A stretch of DNA of 43,866 bases, from contig CAYIUC010000005.1 of NCBI GenBank assembly GCA_964366535.1, positions 1 through 43,866 on the forward strand. The letters run 5' to 3'. Both the position numbers and the translations under genes were made by a program. Origin of the DNA: an uncultured Candidatus Saccharibacteria bacterium. Lineage in GTDB: Bacteria > Patescibacteriota > Minisyncoccia > Phycocordibacterales > UBA10002. This document shows, in pieces, positions 5,044 to 43,674 of the stretch (the first letter of the stretch is position 1; each line of letters opens with the position of its first letter). The notes under the pieces were generated by a model. It saw nothing but the letters and a program-made list of their open reading frames with translations. It ran no database searches and had not been told where the DNA came from.

Positions 5044-5982
5044 ATGGAGGATGAAGTAAAAAAAGAAAATGCTCCGAGTGGCGCGCCGCGCGTGCGCACC
5101 TACGAGCGCGATGTAGCGGAGTTTATGGAGCGCGAGGGTGGGACTGCGGCGAAAATTGCGCTTGCGGAGCAAGAGAAAAGAATTGACCGAGAACAAAAAC
5201 CACCCCTCCTTCCAGAGCGCGATTTTTCTTTTCCTGCTCCCTACCCTTCGGGGAGGGCGGGGGGAGGGGTGGTCTCTATTCCATCTCCTTCCGCCGAACG
5301 CCTTCGCGTGTCTGCGCGAGTGCTTGTGTTATGGAGTATCGCACTGGTCTTCCTAGTGGGAGCAACGGGAATAGGATACTGGTATTGGAGCAACCTGCCG
5401 GAAACGGTGGCTGTTCTACCAACCACGCCAAACTCGAGTACGCAAAAAATACTGATTGCCGACGCGGAAAAGCAATTGAACACGGCACAGCTCACTCGCG
5501 ATTCGTTTATCGCCGCTTTCGCGCGCGAGCGAACATCCGCTTTAGCACTCTCTTCATTTACGCTTGTAGTACCTGTGGCGGCGCGCTCTCTCACAACCGC
5601 CGAATTCCTATCGCTTCTCAATGCTGGAGTAGACGGAACATTCGCGCGCGCGCTCGCGCCAGAGTTTGTACTTGGATTGCGCGGACTTCCGCAAAACCGC
5701 GCATTTCTCATTTTTAAAACCAATTATTATCAAACGGCGCTAGCCGGCATGCTACAGTGGGAAGATACGCTATTTAATGATGCTGGTCCGCTGTTTGGGC
5801 AAGCGATTGGAGGTGTGCAATTTGCCGACAAGACCATTAAAAACCGCGATACGCGCATACTTCTTGATTCTTCCGGAAAAACCTTGCTTATATGGGGGTT
5901 TGCAAACAAAGAAACCATTATTATAACAACAGATGAAGATACATTTACCCAAGTTATTGGAAAATTGGTGCAAACGGAGTAA
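5044..5982 (+). CDS. hypothetical single-pass membrane protein
   Basis: 312 aa with one hydrophobic helix (VLVLWSIALVFLVGATGIGYWYW). TATAAT at 5032-5037 lies 6 nt upstream of the ATG. The ORF contains a palindromic-element segment. Confidence 0.6.
   Translation: MEDEVKKENAPSGAPRVRTYERDVAEFMEREGGTAAKIALAEQEKRIDREQKPPLLPERDFSFPAPYPSGRAGGGVVSIPSPSAERLRVSARVLVLWSIALVFLVGATGIGYWYWSNLPETVAVLPTTPNSSTQKILIADAEKQLNTAQLTRDSFIAAFARERTSALALSSFTLVVPVAARSLTTAEFLSLLNAGVDGTFARALAPEFVLGLRGLPQNRAFLIFKTNYYQTALAGMLQWEDTLFNDAGPLFGQAIGGVQFADKTIKNRDTRILLDSSGKTLLIWGFANKETIIITTDEDTFTQVIGKLVQTE
5236..5273. repeat. G/C-rich palindromic element copy inside a CDS
   Basis: GCTCCCTACCCTTCGGGGAGGGCGGGGGGAGGGGTGGT is 34/38 identical to 22154-22191. 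Both are read in the same frame (..GRAGGGVV..). Confidence 0.85.
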
Positions 5983-9302: not shown

Positions 9303-9539
9303 ATGAAAGAAGAAATGCCACGCCGCCAATCGCTCTTTTGGGATGTGGACCCGAAAACAATTGACCCAGAAAAGCACGGCCGCTATATCATTGAGCGGAT
9401 TTTGGACTTCGGCGATGATGCGGAGGTGCGGTGGGTATGGCGATACTACGACCACGCGCTCATACGCGATGTGGTGCAGCGTTCGCGCGCGCTTTTCCCA
9501 GAAACGCGCTCTTTTTGGAACCTAATGTTTGCAACATAA
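9303..9539 (+). CDS. small conserved-looking protein upstream of the AbiEii-type gene (possible antitoxin partner)
   Basis: 78 aa. TGcTATAAT at 9287-9295 lies 7 nt upstream of the ATG. The stop is 5 nt before the next start. Confidence 0.55.
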   Translation: MKEEMPRRQSLFWDVDPKTIDPEKHGRYIIERILDFGDDAEVRWVWRYYDHALIRDVVQRSRALFPETRSFWNLMFAT

Positions 9540-9544
9540 ACAAC

Positions 9545-10207
9545 ATGAATGAATGGATTCCTAAACGCGAAGTTTTACCTGCATCCACGCAAAAGGCATT
9601 GGAATATGCCCGCAAAGAACACTGGCTGGAAAAAAGCACTTGGTACCTAGCTGGTGGCACAGCGCTCGCGCTACAGGTCGGACATCGGCAATCGGTTGAC
9701 CTGGACTTCTTTACACAAGAAAAAACCTTTGCCCCCGCGGAAGTAACGCGGCATTTCCCCGATACGGTGTGGAAAAGTACAATAGTTAAAGAAGGCACCG
9801 TGTACGGTACGCTATGCAAAGCAAAAGTAAGTTTTATCGCATATCCGTTCTTTATCCCCGCCGTTCCTTTTTTAAGATATGGCGCTGTCGCCGTGCTTGA
9901 TAAAGACGACATTGCCGTTATGAAAATAATTGCGCTCAGTCAGCGCGGACGCAAACGCGATTTCGTTGATTTGTATTGGTACGCGAAACATAACGCCCCA
10001 CTAGAATCGGTGCTTACCAAATTACCTAGGCAATACCCGACCGTTGCGCATAACTTCCAGCATATTATCAAGAGTTTAACCTATTTCAACGACGCAGACG
10101 CCGACCAAATGCCTGCATTGCTTTTTGACGCGACATGGGAGGACATTAAAGAGTATTTCCGCGCGGAAGTGCCGGCGATTGCGAGAAAACTTATCGGGCT
10201 AGATTAG
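9545..10207 (+). CDS. nucleotidyltransferase of the AbiEii/AbiGii toxin family
   Basis: Contains the motif WYLAGGTALALQVGHRQSVDLDFF. I chose the start MNEWIPK at 9545 to avoid overlap with the upstream gene. The track ORF starts at 9431. Confidence 0.7.
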   Translation: MNEWIPKREVLPASTQKALEYARKEHWLEKSTWYLAGGTALALQVGHRQSVDLDFFTQEKTFAPAEVTRHFPDTVWKSTIVKEGTVYGTLCKAKVSFIAYPFFIPAVPFLRYGAVAVLDKDDIAVMKIIALSQRGRKRDFVDLYWYAKHNAPLESVLTKLPRQYPTVAHNFQHIIKSLTYFNDADADQMPALLFDATWEDIKEYFRAEVPAIARKLIGLD

Positions 10208-12622: not shown

Positions 12623-14548
12623 ATGTCGCACCTAGACCAACTGAATCCGCGCCAGCGCGAGGCGGCAGAGCATCGCGACGGGCCGCTTCTCATTATCGCT
12701 GGCGCGGGGGCGGGCAAGACACGCGTGATTGCGCACAGAATTTTGCATCTTATACAAAGCGGAGTTGCGCCGGAATCCATTCTCGCGATTACCTTCACGA
12801 ACAAGGCGGCACAAGAGATGCGGGAGCGCGTATACACCCTATTATCATCAGACCGCGCCAGATGTTTGCAGCCCACAACATCTGGCGCGGGAGACACGGA
12901 AGAGCTTCCTTTCATCTCCACCTTTCACTCACTTGGAGCTACACTCCTCCGCAACCATCCAGAGATTGCCGGGCTACCAAAACGCTTCACAATCTTTGAC
13001 CGAGGCGACTCCGTGCGCGCGGTGAAAAAGGCGACTGCGCTTGCCGGCTTTGACCCGAAGAACTTTGAGCCGCCGAAAATACTTTCTGCAATCAGCCGCC
13101 AAAAAGGGGAGGGGGTTACTGCAGACGCCTTCGCAGAGCAAGCGAGCGACTTCTTCCCGCGCGTCGTGTCGCGCGTGTGGGACGCATACGAAAAGATTCT
13201 CGCCGAAGAAAAGGCGGTTGACTTCGATGACCTTCTACTCAAGACATCGCTTCTCTTAAAGAAAGAATCCGCGCTACGAGAGCGCTATCAAAACCAGTGG
13301 CGTTTCGTGCATATAGACGAATACCAGGACACAAACCGCGTGCAGTACGACATCGCACGCCTCCTTGCCGAGAGCCATCGCAACATTGCGGTTGTAGGCG
13401 ATGCGGACCAGAATATTTACCAGTGGCGCGGAGCATCTATGCGCAATATTTTGGACTTTGAAAAGGATTGGCCTAATGCAAAAGTGGTAACGCTTGAAGA
13501 AAATTACCGCTCCACGCAAACGATTCTAAACGCCGCCAATCGGGTGATTGAGAAAAACAAACACCGCCTACCGAAAACGCTTTTTACGAAAAACGGCGGC
13601 GGGGAGCCGATTGGGCTTTTCGCTGGGCTAGACGAAGCGCACGAAGCGCAGTTTGTCGCAAGCACTTCCCAAGCGCTCATTGCGCACGGCACTATGGCTA
13701 GGGAAATCGCCGTTTTGTTTCGCGCCAACTTCCAAAGCCGCGCGTTGGAAGAAGCGTTTCTCAATGCCGACATTCCGTACCAAGTAGTCGGCGTGCGATT
13801 TTTTGAACGAAAAGAAGTAAAAGACATACTTTCATATGTTCGTGCGGCACTAGACGCACAAAATACAGCTGATTTTGCGCGCATTGTGAATGTTCCAACG
13901 CGAGGAATCGGCAAAGTAACACTGCTGAAGATTCTTGCGGGGCGGGAAGGCGAACTGCCGTTTGGTATGCGGCAAAAAGTTTCCGGGCTCCGCGCACTTC
14001 TAGCCAAAATAAAAGAAAAACTTGAGCATGAACAGATTTCAGTCGCTCTGAAATATATTCTTACTGCAAGCGGGTTGGAAAAAACGCTTCGCGAGGGAAG
14101 TGAAGAAGACGAGGAGCGGCTCTTAAACATCCGCGAGCTTATTGTCTTTGCAATGCGCTATGACGCGCGGGAGGGGGAGCGCAGCACGCTTGTGGAAGCG
14201 TTTTTGCAAGACGCAGCACTCCAGAGCGACCAAGATGAACTGAAAGAAGAGAAGAACGCCGTTCGGCTTATGACTGTGCACGCCGCGAAAGGACTTGAGT
14301 TTGATATCGTGTTTATCACAGGTCTTGAAGACGGGTTATTCCCGCATGCGCGACTATTTGCCGAAAGCGTTACTGCGGAAGCTGCCGAAGAGGAACGGCG
14401 GCTTTTCTATGTGGCGCTTACTCGAGCAAAGAAAAAGGTGTACCTCTCATATGCCGGTATGCGGAGCGTATTCGGCTCGCGGCAAGCAAACCTCCCCTCG
14501 GAGTTTATCTTTGACATTCCGGAGGAATTGCTAGAAGCTGAAACCTAG
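12623..14548 (+). CDS. uvrD: UvrD/PcrA-type superfamily 1 DNA helicase
   Basis: Motifs AGAGAGKTRV, FTNKAA, VHIDEYQDTN, LEENYRST and VHAAKGLEF. I chose the start MSHLDQLNPRQ at 12623, with TATGCT at 12609-12614 lying 8 nt upstream. Confidence 0.9.
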   Translation: MSHLDQLNPRQREAAEHRDGPLLIIAGAGAGKTRVIAHRILHLIQSGVAPESILAITFTNKAAQEMRERVYTLLSSDRARCLQPTTSGAGDTEELPFISTFHSLGATLLRNHPEIAGLPKRFTIFDRGDSVRAVKKATALAGFDPKNFEPPKILSAISRQKGEGVTADAFAEQASDFFPRVVSRVWDAYEKILAEEKAVDFDDLLLKTSLLLKKESALRERYQNQWRFVHIDEYQDTNRVQYDIARLLAESHRNIAVVGDADQNIYQWRGASMRNILDFEKDWPNAKVVTLEENYRSTQTILNAANRVIEKNKHRLPKTLFTKNGGGEPIGLFAGLDEAHEAQFVASTSQALIAHGTMAREIAVLFRANFQSRALEEAFLNADIPYQVVGVRFFERKEVKDILSYVRAALDAQNTADFARIVNVPTRGIGKVTLLKILAGREGELPFGMRQKVSGLRALLAKIKEKLEHEQISVALKYILTASGLEKTLREGSEEDEERLLNIRELIVFAMRYDAREGERSTLVEAFLQDAALQSDQDELKEEKNAVRLMTVHAAKGLEFDIVFITGLEDGLFPHARLFAESVTAEAAEEERRLFYVALTRAKKKVYLSYAGMRSVFGSRQANLPSEFIFDIPEELLEAET

Positions 14549-14554
14549 CGCTTT

Positions 14555-14626
14555 GCGGAAGGCAAAATTTCGTCCTCTTTACCCTCTCTACGGGGGTCCT
14601 ACGAGATACGAAATTTCGCCTTCCGC
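14555..14626. repeat. 72-nt hairpin element, copy 1 (19-bp stem, conserved 34-nt loop)
   Basis: GCGGAAGGCAAAATTTCGT, then a 34-nt loop, then ACGAAATTTCGCCTTCCGC. The loop is identical to that of 30291-30362. The element lies between the uvrD stop and the rsmA start. Confidence 0.85.
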
Positions 14627-14654
14627 TTCGCGCTCAACGAGTTTTGTTATTATT

Positions 14655-15488
14655 ATGTTTGCAAAAAAATCACTGGGTCAACATTTTCTACGAAGCCGCG
14701 CCGCATTAGAAAAAATCGCGGCGGCCCCAGCGCTTACGCCGACTGATGTTGTGTTGGAGGTTGGACCAGGGGAGGGAGCGCTTACCGTTCTTCTCTTAGA
14801 ACGAGCAGGGAAAGTCGTTGCTGTAGAAAAAGATGCGCGGCTTATACCGATTTTGCAAGAAAAGTTTGCGCGCGAGATTGCTGCAGGAAAATTGGGACTC
14901 GTGCACGCTGATATTCTCGAAATCAAGACGCCCCAGATGTTTAGAAAAACCGCGCCAGATGTTGATGGGCTTCAAACATCTGGTGCGGTTTTTCCGGCCG
15001 CCGCATACAAAATCGTCGCCAATCTTCCGTACTACATCACTGGGCAATTCTTGCGTAAGTTTCTGCAAACCGAAACACAACCGAGTATGATGGTTTTACT
15101 GCTGCAAAGAGAAGTGGCGAAACGCATCACAGCGACCGACAAAAAAGAATCTATTCTTTCGCTTAGCGTTAAGTGCTACGGGGCTCCGCGCTACATAACA
15201 ACAGTTAAAGCCGGCTCCTTCTCGCCGCCGCCGAAGGTGGATTCGGCGATACTAGCGATTGAAGATATTTCTAAAGATTTCTTCACGGGTGGAGGGGTTG
15301 TCTTCTCCGAAGAAACATTTTTTACTATTATTAAAAAGGGCTTCGCGCATCCGCGTAAACTACTTTCTAACAACCTCGACATCAGTGCATCTGTGCTGGA
15401 ACAATGCGGCATACACGCGCGGGCGCGTGCCGAAAATGTTTCTTTGGAACAATGGAAGTGTATCGCAAGTGCATCACGAAGTGCCTAG
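14655..15488 (+). CDS. rsmA: 16S rRNA (adenine1518/1519-N6)-dimethyltransferase
   Basis: MFAKKSLGQHFL start and the SAM motif VLEVGPGEGALT. The longer track ORF from 14553 merely reads through the hairpin element. Confidence 0.85.
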   Translation: MFAKKSLGQHFLRSRAALEKIAAAPALTPTDVVLEVGPGEGALTVLLLERAGKVVAVEKDARLIPILQEKFAREIAAGKLGLVHADILEIKTPQMFRKTAPDVDGLQTSGAVFPAAAYKIVANLPYYITGQFLRKFLQTETQPSMMVLLLQREVAKRITATDKKESILSLSVKCYGAPRYITTVKAGSFSPPPKVDSAILAIEDISKDFFTGGGVVFSEETFFTIIKKGFAHPRKLLSNNLDISASVLEQCGIHARARAENVSLEQWKCIASASRSA

Positions 15489-17446: not shown

Positions 17447-17526
17447 CAACCCCTCCTGCCTCCCCCAAGGGGAGGTTCTGACCCTCCCTTCCCTTTGGGG
17501 AGGGAGTAGGAGGGAGGGGTGGTGTG
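17447..17526. repeat. nested G/C-rich palindromic element
   Basis: Hairpins CCTCCCCcaaGGGGAGG and CCCTCCCttccctttGGGGAGGG lie within CCCCTCCT...AGGAGGGAGGGG arms. The element ends in GGGGTGGTG. Confidence 0.8.
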
Positions 17527-17614: not shown

Positions 17615-19705
17615 ATGCGTTGCAAACACATTACAACTCTGCTCATCGTCTCTCTTTTCGTAACTGGCTCGCTATTTACGCCGACGAAGCGCGCCCATGC
17701 GCTTGTGAGCTGTATTCCAGCCATCGCCCCTATTCCAGATATACCACTAGCCGTACCTGTACAAAACTTCGGAGAAATGACGCGGCAAAATATTGCCAAT
17801 ACTTTCAGTGCCTCCAATTTCACCAAAGAGTGCATTCTGGATGCGATGGTTACATTCCTCAAAGAAGCGCTGATACAAAACATCACCGGCTCCATTGTGG
17901 ATTGGATAAACAACGACTTTGAGGGCGGTCCGGCGTTCGTAACCGACCCCGCAGGGTTTTTCGTAAATATTGCCGACGAGACCGCCGGGCGGTTTATAGA
18001 AAATCAATTAGGTCCCATCGGACAACTGCTTTGCAGTCCGTTTGACTTGCGACTGCGTTTGAATCTTTGGCTTGCAACAAGCGCCTCGCGCAAGCAGTAC
18101 ATCGGCTGTCGCCTTACCGATGTGCAGATGAATGTGCACGATGCGTTTACACAAGGTTCGTTTATCGCTTCCGGCGGTTGGAAAACATTTAACGCAATAA
18201 CTTCCGACCCTCGCAACAACCAATACGGCGCGTTCCTCTACGCCTCGGACGCTCTTAACAATGAATTCGTCAAAAGGGCGAATGAAACACTTCGCGATCT
18301 CTCGTACGGTAGGGGATTTCTGTCGTTTAAAAAATGTTCTGAGTGGGTAGATGCATCAAGTGAGGGAACGGGCGAGGGGAGCGGAAAAAGATGCGCAAAA
18401 TACAAAGTGGAAACCCCTGGCTCTCTTATCAACAACCAACTAAATAATGCGTTCGGCTCGGAATTGCGCAAATTTGAGTTGGCGGACGAAATAAACGAGG
18501 TGTTTCAAGCGCTTGTAAACTATGGGCTTCGGCAAGTGTTTACAGCGACAGGCGGCGGACTCCGTGGCGCGAGCAAGGCGGCGGCGGGACAAGAAAGCGC
18601 GGCGTCGCGCCTGCGAAGGTCAGAGGGTACGATAATGAACGAGGTATATGCAAACACGCAAACCGACACAACCGGTGGATTTATAACTACAAAATATGAT
18701 TTGGCTTCTAAGGACGACAATACGCTCACAAAAGTTGTGGCGGAAACAAAATCAGGAAGCGCGGGCGGCAGTAATGGAGAGCGGTTGTCGCCAGACCGAA
18801 ATCTTGCGCTTAATAGGCCGGCATCACAATCGGGATATTATGCCTTACCGCGCTATGATGCCGACAAAGCAGTCAATGGAGGCAAGGACGCGGTCAAGGG
18901 CGATTGTTATGGCTTCAACTGCGCCGCAGTAACCTCCAAATCATCCCCGATATACTGGGAAGTTGCGCTAGGGAAAACATATTCCATAAAAGAAGTGTGG
19001 ATACACAAGGCAAACGACCTTTCTTATGATGCAGCGTTGGGGACATTTAAACTTTCTATCTTAAAGCCGGACCGCGGTATCGCGTACACGAAAGAAGTTG
19101 CGGCCAATTCTGCCACTGCGATTCCACTCGTGATGCCGAACATCAATACCGCTGGCGCGATTGTGCGCATTGAGCGCGCGAATGGAGACGAACTTGCGCT
19201 TGCAGAAGTAGAAGTGTACGGCACGGAATGGGAGACGGCGACTGCAAACACGCCGCCGCCAACTGGCGTTACCGCTCCTCCACCTAGTGCAACTCCAGTG
19301 GTTTCGGTACAACGAAATGTGGAACTGAAAATTGACGGTCCGGTATTTACCATCAATGAACCGATCGTAAATGCGCATATAGGCATCTCAATGGACCAAC
19401 AAGTGGGTACGACATACAAGCCGTTTGCGCCACAGCAAGCGTTTTCAAAAATCCTCGTGCGGGTAAAAAATCAGGAAACGGGTGTGGAGAAGTTTACTGA
19501 GGAGTTTACCAATACGGAAATAAAAACATACCGCACCACCCAAACCTTTAGTGCCACGGCGGGAGAAAAAATAACCGTCGGATACGAGTTTACTCCACAA
19601 AGCGGCGCAAAGGGAAACTACGCGCTTAACACCGAAATAATCGGCTCGGATGGAAATCAGGTTCCCGGTGCCGTAAGCACAATGAGAATTCAAGCACCAA
19701 ATTAA
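17615..19705 (+). CDS. secreted protein with a C-terminal F5/8 type C (discoidin)-like domain; first gene of the T4SS-like operon
   Basis: Signal peptide MRCKHITTLLIVSLFVTGSLFTPTKRAHA. Discoidin-like block: NLALNRPASQSGYY...AVNG...YWEVALGKTYSIKEVWIH...LALAEVEVYG. Confidence 0.6.
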   Translation: MRCKHITTLLIVSLFVTGSLFTPTKRAHALVSCIPAIAPIPDIPLAVPVQNFGEMTRQNIANTFSASNFTKECILDAMVTFLKEALIQNITGSIVDWINNDFEGGPAFVTDPAGFFVNIADETAGRFIENQLGPIGQLLCSPFDLRLRLNLWLATSASRKQYIGCRLTDVQMNVHDAFTQGSFIASGGWKTFNAITSDPRNNQYGAFLYASDALNNEFVKRANETLRDLSYGRGFLSFKKCSEWVDASSEGTGEGSGKRCAKYKVETPGSLINNQLNNAFGSELRKFELADEINEVFQALVNYGLRQVFTATGGGLRGASKAAAGQESAASRLRRSEGTIMNEVYANTQTDTTGGFITTKYDLASKDDNTLTKVVAETKSGSAGGSNGERLSPDRNLALNRPASQSGYYALPRYDADKAVNGGKDAVKGDCYGFNCAAVTSKSSPIYWEVALGKTYSIKEVWIHKANDLSYDAALGTFKLSILKPDRGIAYTKEVAANSATAIPLVMPNINTAGAIVRIERANGDELALAEVEVYGTEWETATANTPPPTGVTAPPPSATPVVSVQRNVELKIDGPVFTINEPIVNAHIGISMDQQVGTTYKPFAPQQAFSKILVRVKNQETGVEKFTEEFTNTEIKTYRTTQTFSATAGEKITVGYEFTPQSGAKGNYALNTEIIGSDGNQVPGAVSTMRIQAPN

Positions 19706-19708
19706 CCA

Positions 19709-21652
19709 ATGAAAAAACTTATTATCATCGTTTTGTTGCTCGGCATCGCACTCGCTCCGGTGGGCGGGGGGGTGGCTTTTGCAGTGGAAACCGGCGGAAA
19801 TGCCCCGCAAACAAACGGCGAGGTGAATGGCGGGTGCGGGATGTTTTCTATAGGCGACTGCATCACCTTCTTTATTGCCCAAATGGGCAATATGGTAATG
19901 ACGCTTGTCTCTAGCGTGCTCAGTATAGCGGGCGCGGCGCTGAACTTCTCGGTGGACCTTACCGTCAATATGAGCGCGTTTCTTGCAAAGGTAAAAATTG
20001 TGGATGTGGGGTGGAAGATAATGCGCGATATTGCAAACCTTTTCTTCATCTTCATACTCCTCTGGGTCGGAATACGCACTATTTTGCAAATGGGAAGCGA
20101 CAACGAGGTGCGTAAGACGCTTCTATGGGTAGTAGTAATGGCACTTCTTATAAACTTCTCGCTCTTTATCACCAAAGCGGTGGTGGATATGGGAAACATT
20201 GCAACACTCCACTTCTACGACGCTATGCGCCCCGACCTATATGAGAACGGGCAACCAGTAAAGGATGCGCAAGGAAAACAAGTAAAGGCGGGTCTTTCCG
20301 ACATATATATGGAAGGGCTAAAAATGCAGACCTTTATGGGGAGCGGTAGCTCTGTGAACAACTTAGTCGCAACTGCAGGCGGCTTCACCAACCAATTTAT
20401 CAAAATTGGGTTGGTAACAATTCTCGGCTCCGTCTTCTTCCTTGTGGCGGCGTTTGTTTTCTTCGCCGCCGCATTTCTCTTTATCGGTCGCGCGGTTGTG
20501 CTTATGTTCCTTATGTTACTCTCGCCACTCGCATTTGCGGCGCAGGTGATACCAAGCATGCAGGGACAAGCTAAGCGTTTTTGGGATACACTTCTCAAAC
20601 AAACCTTCTTCGCTCCGCTCTATATGGCGCTCACTTATGTCGTGGCCAAGGCAATACAAAGTAACGGATTTTCGGACCTTACCAACATTACCGGCAACCA
20701 AGCATCGTTTGCCGCGCTCCTTACTGGCGAACCGTCTGACAATATCGGCATTGTTGTCAACTACATCTTCCTCATCGGCGCGATGGTGTACACGCTCGTT
20801 ATCGCAAGCCAGGGTGGCGCGTATGGAAGCAAGATGGTCATCGGCTGGGGCAAATCGCTCCAAGGGTGGGGGCAGGGGCTCGTTACAGGTGCCGCGGGAG
20901 GGGTTGCCGCGCGCGCTTTGGGCGGTCTTTCCAAGGCGGCGACGGGCGGCTTGTCGGGAACCACGAGTGCCTTTGGGCGCGCGGCGCTCCGCACTGCCGA
21001 CCGTTTGCAAAATATGAAAATCGGCGGCAAGTCATACAAGGAGATGCAAGAGAAGGGGACTTTCTTTGGAGTGGGGGAGGAGGAGATAGAACGAAACATG
21101 AAGCAGTTTAAGAGCCGACCGCAAGAACAAGCGGCGTACCTCTCGCGACTTTCCGAAGGCCAACGGCGTAAGGCATATGAGAAGTTGTCGGCACGAGATA
21201 GGGTTGCAATTGAGCGTACTGGCGTATTGCAACAAGCGCAGATAAACGATATGTATGGACGCCTCAATCCAGAGGAGCGTGACAAGGTTGACGAGGCGCG
21301 ACGCAAGGTACGACAAGAAGAGGGTAATGAACAACGAATGGCTACCGTGGAAACAATCACTGCGGTTCCAGTTGGTACGCCGCTTACTGCCGACCAAATA
21401 ACAGCGGTTACTCAACTCCGCCCAAATCAAGCGCGCGATCTTTCACACGAAGCGCGTACAAACCCTGAAATTATTCGCCGTTTGCGTCCACAACACCTAC
21501 GCGATTTGATGGAAAATGGAAACCTACTTCCGGATGAAATACAGGCAATAATGAATGAGATAGGAGTAGTGGGTGCACCGATAACATATCCAGCGCAGAA
21601 TGCCCAACGCACTTATGTTCAAAATCCGGCAAATGCGGTCTTATGGACGTAA
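19709..21652 (+). CDS. polytopic membrane protein, VirB6/TrbL-like
   Basis: 647 aa with a signal peptide, at least six hydrophobic helices and a charged cytoplasmic tail. The start is 3 nt after the upstream stop. Confidence 0.5.
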   Translation: MKKLIIIVLLLGIALAPVGGGVAFAVETGGNAPQTNGEVNGGCGMFSIGDCITFFIAQMGNMVMTLVSSVLSIAGAALNFSVDLTVNMSAFLAKVKIVDVGWKIMRDIANLFFIFILLWVGIRTILQMGSDNEVRKTLLWVVVMALLINFSLFITKAVVDMGNIATLHFYDAMRPDLYENGQPVKDAQGKQVKAGLSDIYMEGLKMQTFMGSGSSVNNLVATAGGFTNQFIKIGLVTILGSVFFLVAAFVFFAAAFLFIGRAVVLMFLMLLSPLAFAAQVIPSMQGQAKRFWDTLLKQTFFAPLYMALTYVVAKAIQSNGFSDLTNITGNQASFAALLTGEPSDNIGIVVNYIFLIGAMVYTLVIASQGGAYGSKMVIGWGKSLQGWGQGLVTGAAGGVAARALGGLSKAATGGLSGTTSAFGRAALRTADRLQNMKIGGKSYKEMQEKGTFFGVGEEEIERNMKQFKSRPQEQAAYLSRLSEGQRRKAYEKLSARDRVAIERTGVLQQAQINDMYGRLNPEERDKVDEARRKVRQEEGNEQRMATVETITAVPVGTPLTADQITAVTQLRPNQARDLSHEARTNPEIIRRLRPQHLRDLMENGNLLPDEIQAIMNEIGVVGAPITYPAQNAQRTYVQNPANAVLWT

Positions 21653-21658
21653 CCTCAT

Positions 21659-22702
21659 ATGAAATTTACACATACACAAGCCCTAGAATCTCTTAACAAA
21701 CTCCCGCAAGAGACGCGCGAGCGCGTCACTTCGCAAGAAATAACCGACGCGACTATTCGTATCGCGGAAAGAAATGTAGTTCCAAAAGAAAAGATCCTTG
21801 CTTTTAGTTCTGCAGTAGGAACTGTACTACTCGGTTTGATTCAAAAAGAAAAACTTGCCGAGCAGTTGGTTGCAGAGTTGCAACTGCCGCCAGAAAAAGC
21901 CGCCGCGATTGCGGGGGAGGTGGAGAAAGAGATTTTTAATAGTTCTCCCTCTGCCCCTTTTTCAAAGGGGAAGTCCCCGAGTCCGTCTAAGGCGGACGAG
22001 GGGGTAGGGGTTGGTCACGCACAAGGCATACCCCTCCGCCCCGCCCCGCCAGTCGGCGAGGCGGGGCACCTCCCCTCTCAAAGAGGGGAGGGGGAACAAA
22101 AACAAATTTCTCCCCCTCGCCCCGTCCCCATCCGCAAGCCACTACCCCCTCTTGCTCCCTCCCTTTTGGGGAGGGCGGGGGGAGGGGTTGTACCCTCTCT
22201 CCAATCCCTCCTCGCCGACATTCGCCGCGGCACGGCATACGACGAGAATCGTATAGCCGATGCCTTCCGAAAAACGCCGATTGAAGTCAAGCAGTCGCTA
22301 GAGAGTGTCGGGTTTCTATCACGAATGGAAGGCGTTGCGAAAAAGTTTGGTTTAAATGTGGAAGAAACTGGGGAGCTCGTGAGCGAGTCGGGGCTCGTAA
22401 TGCTCGGGCTAACACAACCAATGAACTTCGTAGACAATCTCACGAAACGATTGCGACTGCCGCGCGACCGCGCGATGGCGGTAGGGCAAGCGGTAAATAT
22501 GGAGGTACTGCGCCCAGTGCGGGAAATTTTGCGGAAGATGAGTGTGCCGTCGGAGGAGCTGCGATTTGCGCCGCCCGCCACCCCTGCTCCTTCACAAAAT
22601 CCTCCCCCAACCCCCTCCTTTAGTAAAGGAGGGGGCGGAGGGGGCGGATTTTCTCCAGTGCAAAAATACACTACCGACCCCTACCGCGAACCAATAAACT
22701 AA
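21659..22702 (+). CDS. hypothetical protein with two homologous ~60-aa modules separated by a repeat-element-derived Pro/Gly linker
   Basis: IAERNVVPKEK...GTVLLGLIQ...LQLPPEKAAAIAGEV aligns with VAKKFGLNVEE...GLVMLGLTQ...LRLPRDRAMAVGQAV. The linker at 21945-22191 consists of palindromic elements. Confidence 0.6.
   Translation: MKFTHTQALESLNKLPQETRERVTSQEITDATIRIAERNVVPKEKILAFSSAVGTVLLGLIQKEKLAEQLVAELQLPPEKAAAIAGEVEKEIFNSSPSAPFSKGKSPSPSKADEGVGVGHAQGIPLRPAPPVGEAGHLPSQRGEGEQKQISPPRPVPIRKPLPPLAPSLLGRAGGGVVPSLQSLLADIRRGTAYDENRIADAFRKTPIEVKQSLESVGFLSRMEGVAKKFGLNVEETGELVSESGLVMLGLTQPMNFVDNLTKRLRLPRDRAMAVGQAVNMEVLRPVREILRKMSVPSEELRFAPPATPAPSQNPPPTPSFSKGGGGGGGFSPVQKYTTDPYREPIN
21945..22191. repeat. 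three tandem G/C-rich palindromic elements, in frame in a CDS
   Basis: Copies at 21945-22016, 22031-22097 (opposite arm order) and 22108-22191. Each contains CCCC...GGGG hairpins. Confidence 0.8.
22596..22652. repeat. 57-nt nested palindrome (AAAATCC-type element) in frame in a CDS
   Basis: AAAATCCTCCCCCaaCCCCCTCCTTTAgTAAAGGAGGGGGcgGAGGGGGcGGATTTT. It is translated as NPPPTPSFSKGGGGGGGFS. Confidence 0.85.
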
Positions 22703-22703
22703 T

Positions 22704-23105
22704 ATGAAGTATCAGACACCGCAATTTATAGACATAGAAGACAAGCTATTTGGGCCGTTTACGGTCAAACAATTCATCTACCTAGTCGGTGGAGCTGGAC
22801 TTTCGTTTATCGCATATCGTTTTTTGCCGACCGTTATAAATATAATCGTCATCCTGCCGATTGCCGCACTCGCACTCGCACTCGCGTTTTGGAAAATCAA
22901 CGGCAAACCGTTTGTGTTTATCTTAGAATCCGCTATTCGTTATTACTTCTCCGACAAGCTCTACCTCTGGCGCAAGGTGCCTAAAACCATGTTGGCAAAG
23001 AGTGTCGCGCCAAACGCCCCCCCAACAATACCGAAATTAAATGAAGGCAAGTTGCGCGACCTCACTTGGACGCTAGACATTTCGCATACGACAACGCGAA
23101 AGTAA
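22704..23105 (+). CDS. PrgI-family-like (VirB3-like) small two-TM protein
   Basis: FIDIEDKLFGPFTVKQFIYLVGGAGLSF followed by a second helix. The start is 1 nt after the upstream stop. Confidence 0.6.
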   Translation: MKYQTPQFIDIEDKLFGPFTVKQFIYLVGGAGLSFIAYRFLPTVINIIVILPIAALALALAFWKINGKPFVFILESAIRYYFSDKLYLWRKVPKTMLAKSVAPNAPPTIPKLNEGKLRDLTWTLDISHTTTRK

Positions 23106-23123
23106 GCGGGGTATACTATCACC

Positions 23124-23750
23124 ATGCCACCACATACGAAACCAACACAGGAGTTCGTCCCAATCTCTGAAATACGAGACGGGGTGCTCATTTTGCGAGA
23201 CGGCGGGTTGCGCGCTTTGCTTATGGTCTCATCTGTCAACTTCGCGCTCAAATCCGAAGACAACCAAGAAGCGATACTTCTGCAGTTTCAAAACTTCCTT
23301 AATACGCTGGATTTTTCGGTACAAATTGTAGTACATTCGCGCCGTTTTGATGTGCGTCCTTACCTTGCCCTATTAGAAGAACGAGTGAAGGCGCAAGAAA
23401 CGGAACTCTTGAAAATCCAAACGCGCGAGTATATCGGCTTCGTGCGCTCGTTTACCGAAAGCACTGCAATTATGTCCAAAACCTTCTTTATCACCGTGCC
23501 GTATTCGCCTACTCCAGTTAAACTTAAGGGCGGGCTTCCTGTCGGGTTCCGCAAAAACCAATCAAAAAGCGCTACGGCCAGCGACTTCAACGAAACCAGA
23601 ACGCAATTGGAGCAGCGTATCTCTATTGTGGAGCAGGGGCTTACGCGGTGCGGGCTGCGCACCGCGCGGCTTGGAACAGACGAAGAGATAGAGTTGTTTT
23701 ATAAATTGTTTAACCCTGGCGAAGAACAGCATGCGGCAGTTACCGCATAA
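23124..23750 (+). CDS. T4SS-associated protein resembling a VirB4/TraC N-terminal (non-ATPase) domain
   Basis: Contains EFVPISEIRDGVLILRDGGLRALLMVSSVNFALKSEDNQ. TATACT at 23112-23117 lies 6 nt upstream of the ATG. Confidence 0.45.
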   Translation: MPPHTKPTQEFVPISEIRDGVLILRDGGLRALLMVSSVNFALKSEDNQEAILLQFQNFLNTLDFSVQIVVHSRRFDVRPYLALLEERVKAQETELLKIQTREYIGFVRSFTESTAIMSKTFFITVPYSPTPVKLKGGLPVGFRKNQSKSATASDFNETRTQLEQRISIVEQGLTRCGLRTARLGTDEEIELFYKLFNPGEEQHAAVTA

Positions 23751-23757
23751 AAATACT

Positions 23758-25572
23758 ATGGGAATCTTTGATTTTCTAAAACCAAAAAGGAAAGAGACGG
23801 ACGAGGTAACCCCGATACTACCCGAACAAATCTACCAGTCGGGAGTTTTGGAATTGCGCGATGTGCTCGCGCCCGCCGCGCTCAAAATCTCTCCAAAAAT
23901 CCTAAATCTCGGCGAGAAAATAGCGCGTTCATACTTTGTCATCTCATATCCGCGCTTTCTCACCGCAGGGTGGTTCTCACCAATTATCAATTTGGACAAA
24001 GTATTTGATGTTTCCATCTTCGTACACCCAGTGGAGACAGGAAAGGTGCTGAAGCAATTCCAAAAGAAAGTCGCCGAGGTGCAAAGCCAAATACACACTA
24101 GGGAGGAAAAGGGGTTCGTGCGCGACCCGCAGTTGGAAACCGCCTACCAAGACCTAGAGAAACTGCGCGATGAACTGCAACAGGCGCAGGAAAAGATTTT
24201 TGATGTTGGGCTCTACCTCACGCTCTATGCGGACTCGGAAGAAGAGTTGGAAAAGGTGGAGAGCGAGGTGAAGTCCATTATGGAAGCGAAGCTCGTGTAT
24301 ATGAAGCCCGCGCTCTTCCAGCAGGCAGAAGGGTTCCGCTCGGTAGCGCCTTTAGCCACCGACGAACTCCTAGTGCACTCTAAACTAAACTCCGGACCGC
24401 TTTCTTCCATCTTTCCATTTATTTCGTTTGACCTCTCGTCCGACAAAGGCATTCTATACGGCATAAACAGACACAACTCGTCGCTAGTGCTGTTTGACCG
24501 ATTTTCTCTGGAAAACTACAACTCTGTCGTCTTCGCAAAGTCCGGCGCGGGCAAGTCGTATATGATGAAGCTGGAAATTCTCCGCACGCTTATGTTTGGT
24601 ACGGAAGTTATTGTGATTGACCCCGAAAAAGAGTACGCGTTTCTCGCAGAATCGGTGGGAGGAAAATTCTTTTCCATCTCGCTTACATCCGAACACCACA
24701 TAAACCCATTTGACCTACCGCTCCCGCGCGAAGACGAGTCGCCAGCGGATATATTGCGAAGCCATATAATTTCCTTGGTCGGGCTTTTCCGCATTATGCT
24801 CGGAGGTCTATCACCCGAAGAAGATGCACTCGTAGACCGCGCGATTACAGAAACATACGCGCTCAAAGACATTACGCCCGACTCGGACTTTGGAAAAACC
24901 GAGCCGCCGCTACTTTCCGATTTTGAACTGGTGCTCGCGGGTATGGAAGGCGCAGAAAGTATCCGCGTACGGCTCACCAAATATACGAAGGGCACCTGGT
25001 CAAACTTCATAAACCGCCCATCCAATGTTTCCATAGACGGAAACCTTGTCGTGTTTTCTTTGCGAGACATGGAAGACGAGCTAAAATCGGTCGCTACTTA
25101 CATCGTAACGCACCACATCTGGAACGCGGTACGCAGAAACCTGAAGCGCCGCCTACTGATTGTAGACGAGGCGTGGTGGATGATGAGGAGCGAAGATACT
25201 GCATCTTTCCTTTTATCTGTAGCAAAACGCGGGCGCAAATATTTCTTGGGGGTGGCAACTATTACGCAAGATGTGGACGACTTCCTCTCTTCGCCATACG
25301 GATTGCCGATTGTTACAAACTCTTCTATCCAGATGCTACTTAAGCAGTCGCCGGCAGTGATAGATCGCATCCAAAAAGTATTTAACCTGACAGATGAGGA
25401 AAAGTACCTGCTCTTGGAGTCGGATGTGGGGGAGGGGCTTTTCTTCGTAGGGCTGAAGCATGTTGCGATAAAAATCGTTGCTTCCTATACCGAAGATCAG
25501 ATTATTACCAGCGACCCATCGCAACTTTTGGCGATTAAGAAAGCGAAAGACGAATTGAAAGCAGCTTCATAG
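23758..25572 (+). CDS. VirB4/TrbE/TraC-like type IV secretion ATPase
   Basis: Walker A is FAKSGAGKSYMMK and Walker B is LLIVDEAWWM, with the motif GVATITQD. I prefer the start MGIFDF at 23758; the track ORF starts at 23731. Confidence 0.75.
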   Translation: MGIFDFLKPKRKETDEVTPILPEQIYQSGVLELRDVLAPAALKISPKILNLGEKIARSYFVISYPRFLTAGWFSPIINLDKVFDVSIFVHPVETGKVLKQFQKKVAEVQSQIHTREEKGFVRDPQLETAYQDLEKLRDELQQAQEKIFDVGLYLTLYADSEEELEKVESEVKSIMEAKLVYMKPALFQQAEGFRSVAPLATDELLVHSKLNSGPLSSIFPFISFDLSSDKGILYGINRHNSSLVLFDRFSLENYNSVVFAKSGAGKSYMMKLEILRTLMFGTEVIVIDPEKEYAFLAESVGGKFFSISLTSEHHINPFDLPLPREDESPADILRSHIISLVGLFRIMLGGLSPEEDALVDRAITETYALKDITPDSDFGKTEPPLLSDFELVLAGMEGAESIRVRLTKYTKGTWSNFINRPSNVSIDGNLVVFSLRDMEDELKSVATYIVTHHIWNAVRRNLKRRLLIVDEAWWMMRSEDTASFLLSVAKRGRKYFLGVATITQDVDDFLSSPYGLPIVTNSSIQMLLKQSPAVIDRIQKVFNLTDEEKYLLLESDVGEGLFFVGLKHVAIKIVASYTEDQIITSDPSQLLAIKKAKDELKAAS

Positions 25573-25579
25573 ATAAAGT

Positions 25580-25936
25580 ATGGAAGAAAATGCAAAACAA
25601 GAACCAAAAATAGACAAAGCAACTGGCATTGTGATGATTGCCGTCGCGGCGCTTTTTGATATTGCGAATGCCGGTATTAACCTAATACCCGTACTAGGGC
25701 AAATTCTCGCAGTGCTAATTTCTATAGTCGGGTACTGCACATTTACACTATGGTTCTGGAAGCGAGGTATCGGATTTGTAAATCCTAAGCGTACTGCAAC
25801 ATTTTTCGGTTCAGGAATTATTGAAGCGATTCCGGTACTAAATATTCTTCCCGCGCTCACGGTCGGGGTGGCGCTCACTGTCGGCATGGTACAATTAGAA
25901 GACAGAACCGGGATTAAATTACCGGAAAAAGTATGA
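25580..25936 (+). CDS. small polytopic membrane protein
   Basis: 118 aa with three to four hydrophobic helices. Tightly packed within the operon. Confidence 0.55.
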   Translation: MEENAKQEPKIDKATGIVMIAVAALFDIANAGINLIPVLGQILAVLISIVGYCTFTLWFWKRGIGFVNPKRTATFFGSGIIEAIPVLNILPALTVGVALTVGMVQLEDRTGIKLPEKV

Positions 25937-26889
25937 AGAGAATATTTTTTCTTATCGTCTTTCTCGCCGCCGTGCCGGCTTTTGCCGCGCTGCCGCCTTC
26001 GCCAGACGCGGTGGTCATAACGCTATCGCCAGAAAAGCCCGCGCCAGATACGACGGTGCAGGCAACGCTCTCCATTTTGAGCGGCGGCAGCGCGGCGGAT
26101 ATGGATATAGAGTGGCTTGTAAACGGAACATCGATACGGAAAGGGAAGGGGGTATCTTCTATTTCGTTCCGCACCGGGAAGCTCGGCGCCCGAACTACGC
26201 TCACAGCGCGGATTTCAGAAGGCGAAGAAAAAGTTGAGAAGACGCTCGTGCTTTCTCCCGCATCAGTCGTGCTTGTAGCAGAATCAGACGGCAATGTGCC
26301 GCCTTTCTACCGCGGCAAAACGCTTTTTTCTTACCATGGCTCAACTCGCATTGCGGCAATTCCATTCTTTGCAAGCGCAAACGGCGCGCGCGCGAACCCA
26401 AAAACGCTCAGCTACACTTGGCGTATTGCCGACAGAGTACCCGAGGGCTCGTCTGGAATTGGGCGCGATGTGTTTACATTCTACGCAAAAGTGCCGTTCC
26501 GACCGACGGAAATAGAAGTGGAAGTTGCGACAGTAGATGGGAGCGCAATCGCCGAAGGGCGCATTCTTGCCGAAGCGAAAGCGCCTGAAATAGTACTCTA
26601 CGAAACACACCCGCTATACGGGACGCTCTGGAACAAGGCGCTCTCGGAACTAACGCTAGTTGCGCCAGAGGTGCGCGTGCTTGCAGAGCCGCTCTTCTTC
26701 AACAAAGCCGATGCGCCATTTCTCAAATATGACTGGACGCTATCCGGCAAAAAGGTCGGCGCCCAGTCTGACGCGAGCGTAGTATTTCGCAAAGAGGGCG
26801 CGGAAGGCACAGCGGGCGTTACCGTCGAGATAACCAACCCGCGCGCAATGTTTCAGTTTGGCGAAGCGCGTGGAGTGATACATTTTTAA
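25933..26889 (+). CDS. secreted hypothetical protein
   Basis: Signal peptide MKRIFFLIVFLAAVPAFA. The start overlaps the upstream stop as ATGA. Confidence 0.6.
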   Translation: MKRIFFLIVFLAAVPAFAALPPSPDAVVITLSPEKPAPDTTVQATLSILSGGSAADMDIEWLVNGTSIRKGKGVSSISFRTGKLGARTTLTARISEGEEKVEKTLVLSPASVVLVAESDGNVPPFYRGKTLFSYHGSTRIAAIPFFASANGARANPKTLSYTWRIADRVPEGSSGIGRDVFTFYAKVPFRPTEIEVEVATVDGSAIAEGRILAEAKAPEIVLYETHPLYGTLWNKALSELTLVAPEVRVLAEPLFFNKADAPFLKYDWTLSGKKVGAQSDASVVFRKEGAEGTAGVTVEITNPRAMFQFGEARGVIHF

Positions 26890-26921
26890 TATACGAATAT
26901 ACGAATTATACGAATCTACAA

Positions 26922-27971
26922 ATGTCTACGAATAAAACAAAATTGGTTGGAATAATTGCGGGCACAGGCACGCTGATTTTGTTTGTTCTCCCGTTCTTTG
27001 TCTTTGCCGCCGATTATATTCCGCTTGCGTCAATTCCTGGCACCACTGAAGTTGGGAAAACAACCGCATCGCTCTCGTCTTACCTTACCGGTATGTACCG
27101 AGTGGGCATAGGCGCTGCGGGAATACTTGCCGTACTTATGCTCGTCTGGGGCGGATTCCAGTATGCGACTACGGAAGCGGTAATGGGAAAAAGCGAAAGT
27201 AGGGGTATTATTATGAATGTCGTATGGGGTCTCGCGGTAATTCTAGGCTCGTACCTTCTTCTCGTCACCATCAACCCGCGTCTAGTAGACATCGGCCTCA
27301 CGATTGGGAATTTGAATAGGGTGAATCGTACTAGAATACCAACACCGGAAGAAACTTACGGTAAATTTCTTGATAGTATGCTCCAAAGAGTACAGGCGAC
27401 ATCTCAAAAAGCACGGGACATAAAAAAACTTTCTGACGATAAGCGACTAGAGCGTGGTTTACTTCAACAAAAAATTGACGAGGGGAATTATGAGAACGAC
27501 GCGGAACTTGAATCTCTTCAATCACAAATAAACTTACTGGACAAAGAAGTTGGTTTTTTGGATGTACAAGAAGTTAATGTGCGAAATTATGAAAACGCGC
27601 TTGATCAAATTGATTTGAATAGCAAAAACATGTTGGATTGTCTTACCGGATATGGGTCTTGCCAAAGATATGTTAGCAATAGCGCGGTATCAAGATTTAT
27701 TAGAAATAAGATCCTTGGGGGAAGATCAGAAACGCAACTACAAGCAGACGAAGCGGAAGCCGCGAAGTTTTTAGATGGCGCACAAAAAGATGCTAATAAA
27801 CGCATGGCGGAATTGCGCGCGGCGGGTTTAACACAAAGAGCAGATGCGTTGCAGACAAAAATAAATGGTATGACTGATCAATTCACTCGAGGAAAAGATT
27901 TCGGGAGGGCGTGTGATGGGGCCACTAAACCTATGCCAACGAATTGGAGATCGGGAGACGCGTGCCCATAA
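26922..27971 (+). CDS. T4SS pilin-like (TrbC/VirB2-like) N-terminal module fused to an AT-rich coiled-coil C-terminal half
   Basis: A signal peptide is followed by two hydrophobic helices (GIGAAGILAVLMLVWGGFQY; VVWGLAVILGSYLLLVTINP). The C-terminus is rich in heptad-like charged sequence. Confidence 0.55.
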   Translation: MSTNKTKLVGIIAGTGTLILFVLPFFVFAADYIPLASIPGTTEVGKTTASLSSYLTGMYRVGIGAAGILAVLMLVWGGFQYATTEAVMGKSESRGIIMNVVWGLAVILGSYLLLVTINPRLVDIGLTIGNLNRVNRTRIPTPEETYGKFLDSMLQRVQATSQKARDIKKLSDDKRLERGLLQQKIDEGNYENDAELESLQSQINLLDKEVGFLDVQEVNVRNYENALDQIDLNSKNMLDCLTGYGSCQRYVSNSAVSRFIRNKILGGRSETQLQADEAEAAKFLDGAQKDANKRMAELRAAGLTQRADALQTKINGMTDQFTRGKDFGRACDGATKPMPTNWRSGDACP

Positions 27972-27975
27972 TTTT

Positions 27976-30280: not shown

Positions 30281-30290
30281 GTGTCACTTC

Positions 30291-30362
30291 GCAGAAAGCG
30301 GAATTTTTTCCTCTTTACCCTCTCTACGGGGGTCCTACGAGATAAAAAATTCCGCTTTCTGC
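30291..30362. repeat. 72-nt hairpin element, copy 2 (perfect 19-bp stem, conserved 34-nt loop)
   Basis: GCAGAAAGCGGAATTTTTT, then a 34-nt loop, then AAAAAATTCCGCTTTCTGC. It fills the rpmH-rnpA spacer. Confidence 0.85.
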
Positions 30363-30366
30363 TTCG

Positions 30367-30501
30367 TTACACCGTAAGACGCTTACGACCTTTCTGCCTG
30401 CGGCGAGCGATTACGCGCTTTCCGGAGGTGCGGCTCATACGCGCGAGGAAGCCGTGCGTCCTCGCGCGCTTTTTCTTCTTTGGTTTGTAGGTAAAGCTCA
30501 T
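30367..30501 (-). CDS. rpmH: 50S ribosomal protein L34
   Basis: My own translation gives [44 protein letters not shown]. The ORF is below the track length cutoff. Confidence 0.9.
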
Positions 30502-43619: not shown

Positions 43620-43674
43620 GCGCATACTAGGCGGCACCAGATGTTTGAGGCCTATCAACATCTAGCGCCGCCAC

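Follow-up and report, generated by a model that had tools for sequence, protein, structure and literature searches.

Repetitive extragenic palindromic (REP) sequences usually number tens to hundreds per genome, and REPIN-RAYT systems (REP doublets forming hairpins, with REP-associated tyrosine transposases) have been described mainly from Proteobacteria. Bacteria of the candidate phyla radiation (CPR) have very small genomes densely packed with genes, and interspersed repeats are a rarity in them. In a REP unit, an imperfect palindrome has the tetranucleotide GTAG on the 5' side of its foot; a required stem mismatch and conserved loop bases are often present, and the Y1 transposase reads the unit as single-stranded DNA (PMC3333891, PMC8266576). 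REPINs lie outside genes, fold into hairpins of roughly 100 nt and commonly show compensatory changes (PMC3116915). In bacterial interspersed mosaic element 1 (BIME-1) of Escherichia coli, a well-conserved linker with a site for integration host factor (IHF) lies between a REP and an inverted REP (iREP) (PMC3333891). Here we analyze two copies, W1 and W2, of a palindromic element in a stretch of 43,866 nt from an uncultured bacterium deposited as Candidatus Saccharibacteria (assembly GCA_964366535.1, contig CAYIUC010000005.1, positions 1 to 43,866; hereafter the window). We read them, with about even confidence, as an undescribed interspersed palindromic DNA repeat of about 90 bp, of the REP/REPIN/BIME-1 kind, that acts as a hairpin at the DNA level. 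The kind is not unprecedented, being a variant of interspersed palindromic repeats; what is distinctive is an invariant REP-like tip on a freely covarying stalk, in a CPR host.

A preliminary description of this DNA reported two 72-nt hairpins, at 14555-14626 (W1) and 30291-30362 (W2), with an identical 34-nt centre, and both sequences are exactly as it quoted them. The centre, CCTCTTTACCCTCTCTACGGGGGTCCTACGAGAT, lies at 14574-14607 and 30310-30343, on the + strand both times, with 0 mismatches. No match is expected by chance (100 shuffles), and the window holds no third copy of the 34-mer even when 3 mismatches are allowed. The six stem differences also agree position by position: at stem positions 3, 7, 11, 17 and 18 the copies differ by double changes that keep Watson-Crick pairing, and at position 10 W2 has G:C where W1 has A opposite C. 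Two parts of the description need amending. The 34-nt centre was called a loop; it is identical as claimed, but its ends pair (CTC/GAG) and it contains an apical hairpin. The extent was given as 72 nt; folds add an outer helix, and the true units are 88 nt (W1) and 92 nt (W2). Similarity between the two reaches 80 nt (repeat finder, family D1), and beyond 80-90 nt their flanks are unrelated.

From the outside inwards, every layer of the element recurs across the family of 15 copies described below. The outer helix has 3-7 bp of variable sequence. Next come the triplets TTY (5') and TTC (3'), which form a symmetric 3x3 internal loop; they have this form in 13 of the 15 copies and are complementary in none. 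The main stem has 23 bp in total, 19-20 bp plus the top three pairs, and between these two parts stand a C facing A (in four copies, C:G) and a bulge of one base. The top pairs are the ends of the supposed loop, (C)CTC/GAG(A), which covary as CCC/GGG and CGC/GCG in other copies. They carry a near-invariant, asymmetric tip of about 26 nt, with an internal loop (TTT opposite CCTAC) and an apical hairpin that has a 5-6 bp stem, (A)CCCTC/GGGGG(T), a fixed T.G pair and the loop TCTAC. Coordinates of these parts in W1 and W2 are given in Table 1.

Copies were gathered by scans and synteny walks, and the search of genomes and metagenomes that the preliminary description had proposed yielded 13 more distinct copies, 15 in all, in at least eight Parcubacteria (CPR) organisms. 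An exact scan for the 20-mer CCCTCTCTACGGGGGTCCTA, with one genome per species, found 7 loci in 4 metagenome-assembled genomes (MAGs): Parcubacteria Gr01-1014_17 (on four contigs, so at least 4 copies), Candidatus Taylorbacteria RIFCSPLOWO2_01_FULL_48_100, JAUYPY01 and one labelled Saccharibacteria. The metagenome scan used a pattern in which parts of the arms and the tip flanks were fixed and the apical 15 nt were free. It returned 8 loci (1 chance match, 2 duplicates and 5 new copies), and in these the free positions show a single substitution, loop C->T in the copy at L009 (we number fetched loci with L); across the family the apical 15 nt are otherwise invariant. We also built a covariance model from 14 copies and ran it with no filters. 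In the window it found no further or degenerate copy, only ordinary terminators and other palindromes. On the syntenic loci it found one variant copy, L026:12814-12910, with the tip CTTCACCCTCTCTACGGGGGCTCCGACG; no other copy was found independently of the tip sequence. Its apical hairpin is retained, the flanks of that hairpin show 3 changes, and GTAG has become GTCG.

By its RsmA and DnaA homologues the window belongs with Taylorbacteria-like Parcubacteria (its best RsmA match is 70% identical, and its DnaA is 86% identical to that of Gr01-1014_17), and as far as the scans show the family is confined to a few genomes of this group, from tiny groundwater bacteria. The window organism is also present in Hainich groundwater assemblies, with an unchanged W1. 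Viral contigs, a phage collection and a plasmid collection gave 0 family matches, and a protein database search for the peptides that the element would encode by read-through of open reading frames (ORFs) gave no candidate. Literature searches on CPR/Parcubacteria repeats, miniature inverted-repeat transposable elements (MITEs), RNA motifs and the tip sequence found no palindromic repeat family for Parcubacteria. The preliminary description recognized no known RNA family, and Rfam gives 0 matches in the window at gathering thresholds, and at E up to 10 only miRNA-shaped hairpins (E >= 0.6, e.g. mir-641 with 17.6 bits against a threshold of 100). The window contains no tRNA or tmRNA. The family is new, with no match in Rfam, in the literature searched or in the phage and plasmid collections. 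Since the window has only two copies and their centres are identical, one could suspect that the likeness is due to chance, to recent duplication of a segment or to faulty assembly. The zero chance expectation, the unrelated flanks and the 13 further copies refute this and leave it next to no probability; W1 is moreover identical in two independent assemblies from other samples, and is therefore not an assembly artefact.

Folding and covariation both show a strongly maintained hairpin. As RNA, W1 and W2 each fold into one long hairpin on either strand (-43 to -53 kcal/mol, z about -8), and 0/200 shuffles are as stable; as DNA they form a hairpin on both strands (z -7 to -8). Covariation was tested on the 15-copy alignment (34 pairs, 507 cells) against shuffles (n=500) and against controls with slid partners. 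Standard pairing occurs in 94.3% of the cells and two-sided changes at 19/34 pairs, spread over 72 cells; 0/500 shuffles reach the observed values, and sliding the partners by 1-3 columns lowers pairing to 39-54%. The outer helix has two-sided changes at 4/5 pairs. Double changes are often transversions (A-U, C-G, G-C and U-A at one pair, for example), and one-sided G-U changes occupy 2 cells of the 507. In four copies (L004, L009, L011, L026) a 1-bp indel is mirrored in both arms. Sporadic mismatches comprise 7 A.C, 1 G.T and a small number of other kinds. The 15 copies confirm the covariation, far more strongly than two could, and the claim of a conserved centre on a drifting but complementary stem is borne out. 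The preliminary description also named what would speak against it, namely uncompensated stem changes, a larger duplication, or a match to Rfam or to the end of an insertion sequence (IS), and none of these was borne out.

All-against-all blastn of the fetched loci identified the syntenic ones, and at these site occupancy differs between close relatives. The uvrD-rsmA site is occupied in the window. L017 has overlapping uvrD and rsmA genes and hence no spacer; in L016 a 35-nt spacer holds a mini-hairpin (outer helix, 3x3 loop, and a stem of 6 bp, GCGAAA/TTTCGC), which may be an internally deleted remnant, although its fold is not significant. The rpmH-rnpA site is occupied in the window and empty in Gr01-1014_17 (L024; 1 nt) and JAUYPY01 (L025; 6 nt), which carry the family at other sites. 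Between a small ORF and tyrS there is a copy in Gr01-1014_17 (L003/L024) and in L026, and there are ordinary bidirectional terminators and no element in the window, L025 and L027. The end of gyrA is occupied in Gr01-1014_17 (L004) and empty in the Taylorbacteria MAG (L014). Insertion into the loop of a pre-existing terminator is not supported, as the empty sites have either no spacer or unrelated terminators.

Where copies persist, the arms diverge about as fast as the flanks yet stay Watson-Crick complementary, the tip is nearly fixed, and constraint on the tip is much stronger than on arms or flanks. L010 and L011 have the element at the same site and in the same orientation between flanks that are 78-80% identical (blastn); their 34-nt centres are identical, and their arms differ by one compensated substitution and the mirrored indel. 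L007 and L009, with flanks about 80% identical, also share the site, and there the whole unit, triplets included, is inverted. Such orthologous copies provide an unusually clean natural experiment, in which the arms drift at about the neutral rate and the tip barely changes.

We favour an interspersed DNA repeat over a gene-specific regulatory RNA because of this turnover, the dispersal, the placement in either orientation and the combination of covarying arms with a constrained tip. We place the hairpin at the DNA level because complementarity is nearly free of wobble pairs, indels are mirrored, the non-complementary triplets and the bulge are conserved, and placement does not depend on orientation. 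The tip supplies the closest link to a described system. In 14/15 copies (L026 differs) its minus strand reads CGTAG-G-ACCCCC-GTAGA-GAGGGT, so that GTAG stands before the foot of a short imperfect palindrome as it does in a REP; shared with REPs are GTAG, the following G, the short imperfect palindrome, a fixed mismatch and a conserved loop. On the + strand, GTCC|TACG of the tip fits the cleavage consensus of E. coli iREP-II as printed in PMC3333891. We take the REP-like tip, a resemblance of sequence, as a lead and not as proof of membership. The family further shares with REPs and REPINs its short length, extragenic location, dispersed copies in both orientations and a long hairpin of about 90-100 nt with compensatory changes. 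The preliminary description had held the pattern to be the opposite of REP-like repeats, a contrast that is not supported: REPINs show compensatory arms (PMC3116915), BIME-1 has a conserved centre (PMC3333891) and the tip itself is REP-like.

A mechanism along these lines can be outlined. The working form would be a folded single strand, present as single-stranded DNA at the replication fork or through extrusion of a cruciform. A structure-specific protein, which may also read the interruptions in the stem, would recognize the tip by its mini-hairpin, headed by GTAG and containing the fixed mismatch, and would copy or maintain the element. The best precedent for such a protein is a REP-type Y1 (HUH) tyrosine transposase, and another nuclease or recombinase is possible. 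The arms would stay complementary since the hairpin is the substrate, probably aided by intrastrand template switching, in which one arm is copied from the other, a process that would also account for the mirroring of 1-bp indels. Many copies are co-transcribed, and operon mRNAs would as a side effect contain hairpins of about 28 bp. Should the REP-like reading be right, single-strand (HUH-type) repeat systems extend to CPR bacteria in a new architecture, with one recognition hairpin on a long stalk.

Several observations weigh against a repeat of the REP/REPIN/BIME-1 kind. A REPIN stem consists of two inverted REPs; here one REP-like unit sits atop a long unrelated palindrome, and the arms of the family contain no GTAG/CTAC and no REP hairpin. 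The centre is the best conserved part and the ends the least, which reverses the REPIN pattern, where the spacer between the two REPs is less conserved. Copy number is low for REPs, with 2 in the 43.9-kb window and at least 4 in Gr01-1014_17 (exact 20-mer), and the host is a CPR bacterium, unlike those of most REPIN-RAYT systems. No gene flanked by copies was seen, no target-site duplication was found at the copies, and tblastn found no Y1 transposase or RAYT gene in element-bearing loci (about 277 kb of genome fragments, only part of it from carriers). Element orientation relative to local GC skew is mixed, with no bias, and so lends no support to lagging-strand-specific transposition. GTAG could stand beside the hairpin by coincidence, with a chance of about 2% by our own estimate. 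The tip owes part of its invariance to the searches, since portions of it were fixed in both large scans. Finally, an RNA or a host function could likewise account for the fixed apical T.G and for the strong conservation of the tip in situ.

An IS200-type Y1 transposase gene does occur at L022:97-531 and L023:1347-1781 (NCBIfam NF033573, 120 bits). These loci come from different assemblies, do not have the element and belong to a relative of the window organism, whose RsmA homologue is the same in both. The gene belongs to an ordinary IS200, not a RAYT, with its own unrelated end hairpins (CCCCGCGG-CTCTG-CCGCGGG and CCTCGGGG-CTCTG-CCCCGAGG), and we reject a link between it and the family.

Mirrored indels, together with the W2 outer helix, which pairs inserted sequence with pre-existing rpmH codons (its GTTACAC half is the complement of the last codons and stop of rpmH), leave an outside chance for a structure-defined replicator or functional hairpin of a novel kind in CPR bacteria. 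As a replicator, it could be a hairpin transposon that rebuilds its arms by fold-back on each move or repair, with an undescribed enzyme reading the tip alone. As a functional hairpin, it could be a processing stalk that frees a small RNA of about 26 nt or displays a protein-binding tip, in hosts with minimal regulatory repertoires.

The preliminary description read the pattern as selection on structure, of the sort seen in hairpins recognized by a protein or an RNA; that it points to an RNA is not supported. A functional structured RNA would be a co-transcribed hairpin whose tip is a recognition site for a protein or RNA. Between cistrons it could act in processing or stability in the manner of an RNase III substrate, or it could be the precursor of a small RNA that is freed from a processing stalk. 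Covariation runs very strongly through three helices, the apical stem has an invariant U.G of a type typical of RNA recognition sites, and the tip is conserved in situ while flanks diverge. Unpaired segments are all pyrimidine-rich on one strand and purine-rich on the other. Many copies are inside operons that leave no room for a promoter (uvrD-rsmA, rpmH-rnpA, ftsW-murG, gyrA-methyltransferase) and must be transcribed. However, orientation relative to transcription is mixed: compared with co-directional flanking genes some 7-8 copies have the plus form as sense and 3 have it as antisense, several have convergent genes on either side, and L007 and L009 are inverted relative to each other. An RNA tip would therefore differ between copies. 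G-U is nearly absent on the + strand, apart from the 2 sporadic cells, and A.C mismatches, which are G.U on the minus strand, occur mostly in copies transcribed in the + form. Presence/absence turnover, the lack of a common gene context and the lack of a significant Rfam match also count against an RNA, which we regard as unlikely. If it is true, the family is a new RNA motif in essential operons such as rpmH-rnpA and ftsW-murG. Wobble asymmetry does not choose a strand, as its signals are weak and contradictory: the A.C excess hints at G.U tolerance in the minus strand but conflicts with + transcription, and the fixed non-Watson-Crick positions (the apical T.G and the C.A at the top of the stem) point to opposite strands.

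In architecture the element resembles BIME-1. Both have inverted palindromic units around a conserved asymmetric centre of about 30 nt and occur as single units in intergenic spacers. The arms here differ in being plain complementary strands with no REP hairpins or GTAG of their own, and they vary freely with compensation, whereas REPs are conserved in sequence. The element could accordingly be a host-domesticated DNA site like BIME-1 (RIP), in which the centre binds a nucleoid or other DNA-binding protein between inverted repeats and serves in chromosome structuring, topological insulation or bidirectional termination. The architecture matches that of BIME-1 in its long conserved linker between inverted palindromic units (PMC3333891); a function independent of orientation fits the mixed orientations, and the in-situ conservation of the tip fits as well. 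The tyrS copy sits exactly where relatives have a plain bidirectional terminator, and the tip holds CTACG twice, 11 bp apart, about one helical turn. Yet binding to duplex DNA needs neither 28 bp of complementarity nor mirrored indels nor conserved non-complementary triplets. By eye, we recognized no IHF consensus in the tip. Even in related genomes the element is seldom seen, and orthologous sites frequently lack it, as would not be expected if the host needed the site. W1 and W2 have no T-tract and are not called as terminators. We judge a domesticated host site to be distinctly unlikely.

Other classes of palindromic element fit less well. The terminal inverted repeats of MITEs are conserved, since the transposase reads them, and are flanked by target-site duplications. 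In this family the outer helix and arm ends are the most variable parts and covary (CAC/GTG, CGC/GCG, TGC/GCA, GGGC/GCCC), and no target-site duplication is present; on these two grounds we reject a MITE. MITEs such as Correia, ERIC and RUP do resemble it in size, intergenic location, co-transcription as long RNA hairpins and presence/absence polymorphism (PMC3184786). The sole direct repeat, CTTYG...CTTCG, is structural and not a target-site duplication, because its G and C form a covarying pair (columns 12-86: GC 12, AU 2). No parent IS or half-element was found, in the sense that the fetched DNA has no solo halves or arm matches outside complete copies; the collection scans spanned the centre and could not detect a full-length IS. 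Integron attC sites have RYYYAAC/GTTRRRY boxes and a variable terminal structure, and they follow promoterless cassette ORFs in arrays beside intI. As recombination sites they resemble the element in being hairpins whose structure is kept as the sequence varies: the outer box helix is followed by a central unpaired spacer and then by an inner helix containing one extrahelical base, and the site comes just after a stop codon. Here, in contrast, the terminal structure is invariant, and the ends (CAC/CGC...GTG/GCG after TTY/TTC) have no conserved AAC/GTT. Neighbours are housekeeping genes (uvrD, rsmA, rpmH, rnpA, gyrA, ftsW, murG) and not cassette arrays, with W1 and W2 15.7 kb apart, and attC is rejected. 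Docking of two internal loops as in the hairpin ribozyme can likewise be set aside, as judged from geometry: a continuous helix of about 24 bp would lie between them.

Every copy is intergenic, with gene ends 0-20 nt from the outer helix. W1 fills most of a 106-nt spacer between uvrD/pcrA (stop codon 14546-14548) and rsmA (start 14655), and the 5' half of its outer helix shares the last two bases of the uvrD stop codon. W2 fills the entire 86-nt rpmH-rnpA spacer (rpmH stop codon 30367-30369, rnpA start 30280, both on the minus strand), and its form in the operon transcript is the reverse complement; W2 lies 245 nt upstream of dnaA, which starts at 30617. GC skew of the window tracks the gene strand and does not switch at dnaA. 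The other copies lie beside recR/rplU, a metallo-beta-lactamase-fold gene, the small acidic ORF and tyrS, gyrA and a methyltransferase gene, ychF/DUF5671, hpf and a cyclophilin gene, and the genes for an RRM protein, an xer-like recombinase and sigma-70, as well as ftsW/murG, all unrelated housekeeping context.

We reject an intrinsic terminator for W1 and W2, since a terminator scan called neither whole element and no T-tract follows either (the next bases are CAACGAG after W1 and CGTAAGA after W2). The sole call at W2, 30288-30302, is a 5-bp sub-stem in the 5' arm, and the number of calls in the region is within the range of shuffles. T runs do follow the outer helix in about half of the other copies. 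A promoter function of W1 or W2 is unsupported by a consensus scan. In practice, the element breaks or ends contigs (the contig of L019 begins 45 nt upstream of its copy), and anyone reading raw sequence may take it for a miRNA-like gene or for extra N-terminal sequence of an ORF.

Table 1. Positions of the two elements and their parts in the window
Feature	Positions	Strand	Details and basis
W1 whole element	14547..14634	+	88 nt; covariance-model score 107.8 bits
W1 outer helix 5' half AGCGC	14547..14551	+	pairs with GCGCT 14630-14634; fold
W1 triplet TTT	14552..14554	+	opposite TTC 14627-14629 in 3x3 internal loop; alignments
W1 main stem 5' arm	14555..14577	+	19 nt, then C (opposite A), then CTC
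W1 tip TTTACCCTCTCTACGGGGGTCCTAC	14578..14602	+	apical hairpin 14581-14597, T.G pair, loop TCTAC
W1 tip, read as GTAGGACCCCCGTAGAGAGGGTAAA	14578..14602	-	GTAG + G + imperfect hairpin
W1 3' arm	14603..14626	+	GAG, A (opposite C), T (bulge), then 19 nt
W1 triplet TTC and outer helix 3' half GCGCT	14627..14634	+	fold, alignment
W2 whole element	30281..30372	+	92 nt; covariance-model score 102.7 bits
W2 outer helix 5' half GTGTCAC and triplet TTC	30281..30290	+	fold
W2 main stem 5' arm	30291..30313	+	sequence, covariation analysis
W2 tip, same sequence as W1 tip	30314..30338	+	34-mer match
W2 main stem 3' arm	30339..30362	+	sequence, covariation analysis
W2 triplet TTC and outer helix 3' half GTTACAC	30363..30372	+	fold

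The window and the related loci contain further repeats. A second palindromic family, CCGCGCCAGATGTT(T)G-loop-CAACATCTGGCGCGG, occurs in the window at 12853-12890, 14944-14994, 29195-29232 and 43630-43672; its stems are conserved and its loops vary. Two of its copies lie within ORFs (uvrD and rsmA), and the one in rsmA encodes APDVDGLQTSGA, a segment absent from some RsmA homologues, resembling the in-frame palindromic insertions known as Rickettsia palindromic elements (RPEs). A G+C-rich motif of 42 nt (CTCCCT.CCCTT.GGGGAGGGCGGGGGGAGGGG) is found at 5232-5273, 17479-17520 and 22150-22191 with 69-88% identity; two copies are within ORFs that have no Pfam match, and each folds into hairpins. 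Clusters of the motifs TAAAGGACA / TGTCCTTTA occur at 611-724 and 2114-2266 and include a perfect palindrome (25+25 nt, 2193-2243). They are located both inside and downstream of a CCA-adding/poly(A) polymerase-like gene and upstream of a NYN-domain gene, and may be an operator array or another repeat. In or close to the uvrD-rsmA region, relatives have other long GTAG-rich palindromes or repeats: L018:976-1072, with the same layout of outer helix, 3x3 loop and long stem; L021:7183-7247, a TTCGTAGG hairpin; and L022:6355-6457, with tandem ATTCGTA motifs. A dif/lox-like sequence, ATACTTCGTATAATGTATGTTAATCCAC, is identical in L010 (about 592-619, minus strand) and L011 (about 470-497). It lies between the element and the gene of the xer-like tyrosine recombinase, an arrangement like xerS/difSL.

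Three gene-level observations concern the same regions. At 17615-29193, directly upstream of yidC-rnpA-rpmH/dnaA, a run of + strand genes with few Pfam matches encodes a PrgI-like protein and a VirB4/TraG-type ATPase, and forms a type IV secretion-like cluster that is syntenic in L024 and L025. The UvrD/PcrA homologue at L021:4069-7176 (1035 aa) has Hint/intein-splicing domains and is an intein-containing helicase. At 9431-10207 of the window, a gene for an AbiEii-type nucleotidyltransferase toxin (type IV toxin-antitoxin) stands among housekeeping genes.

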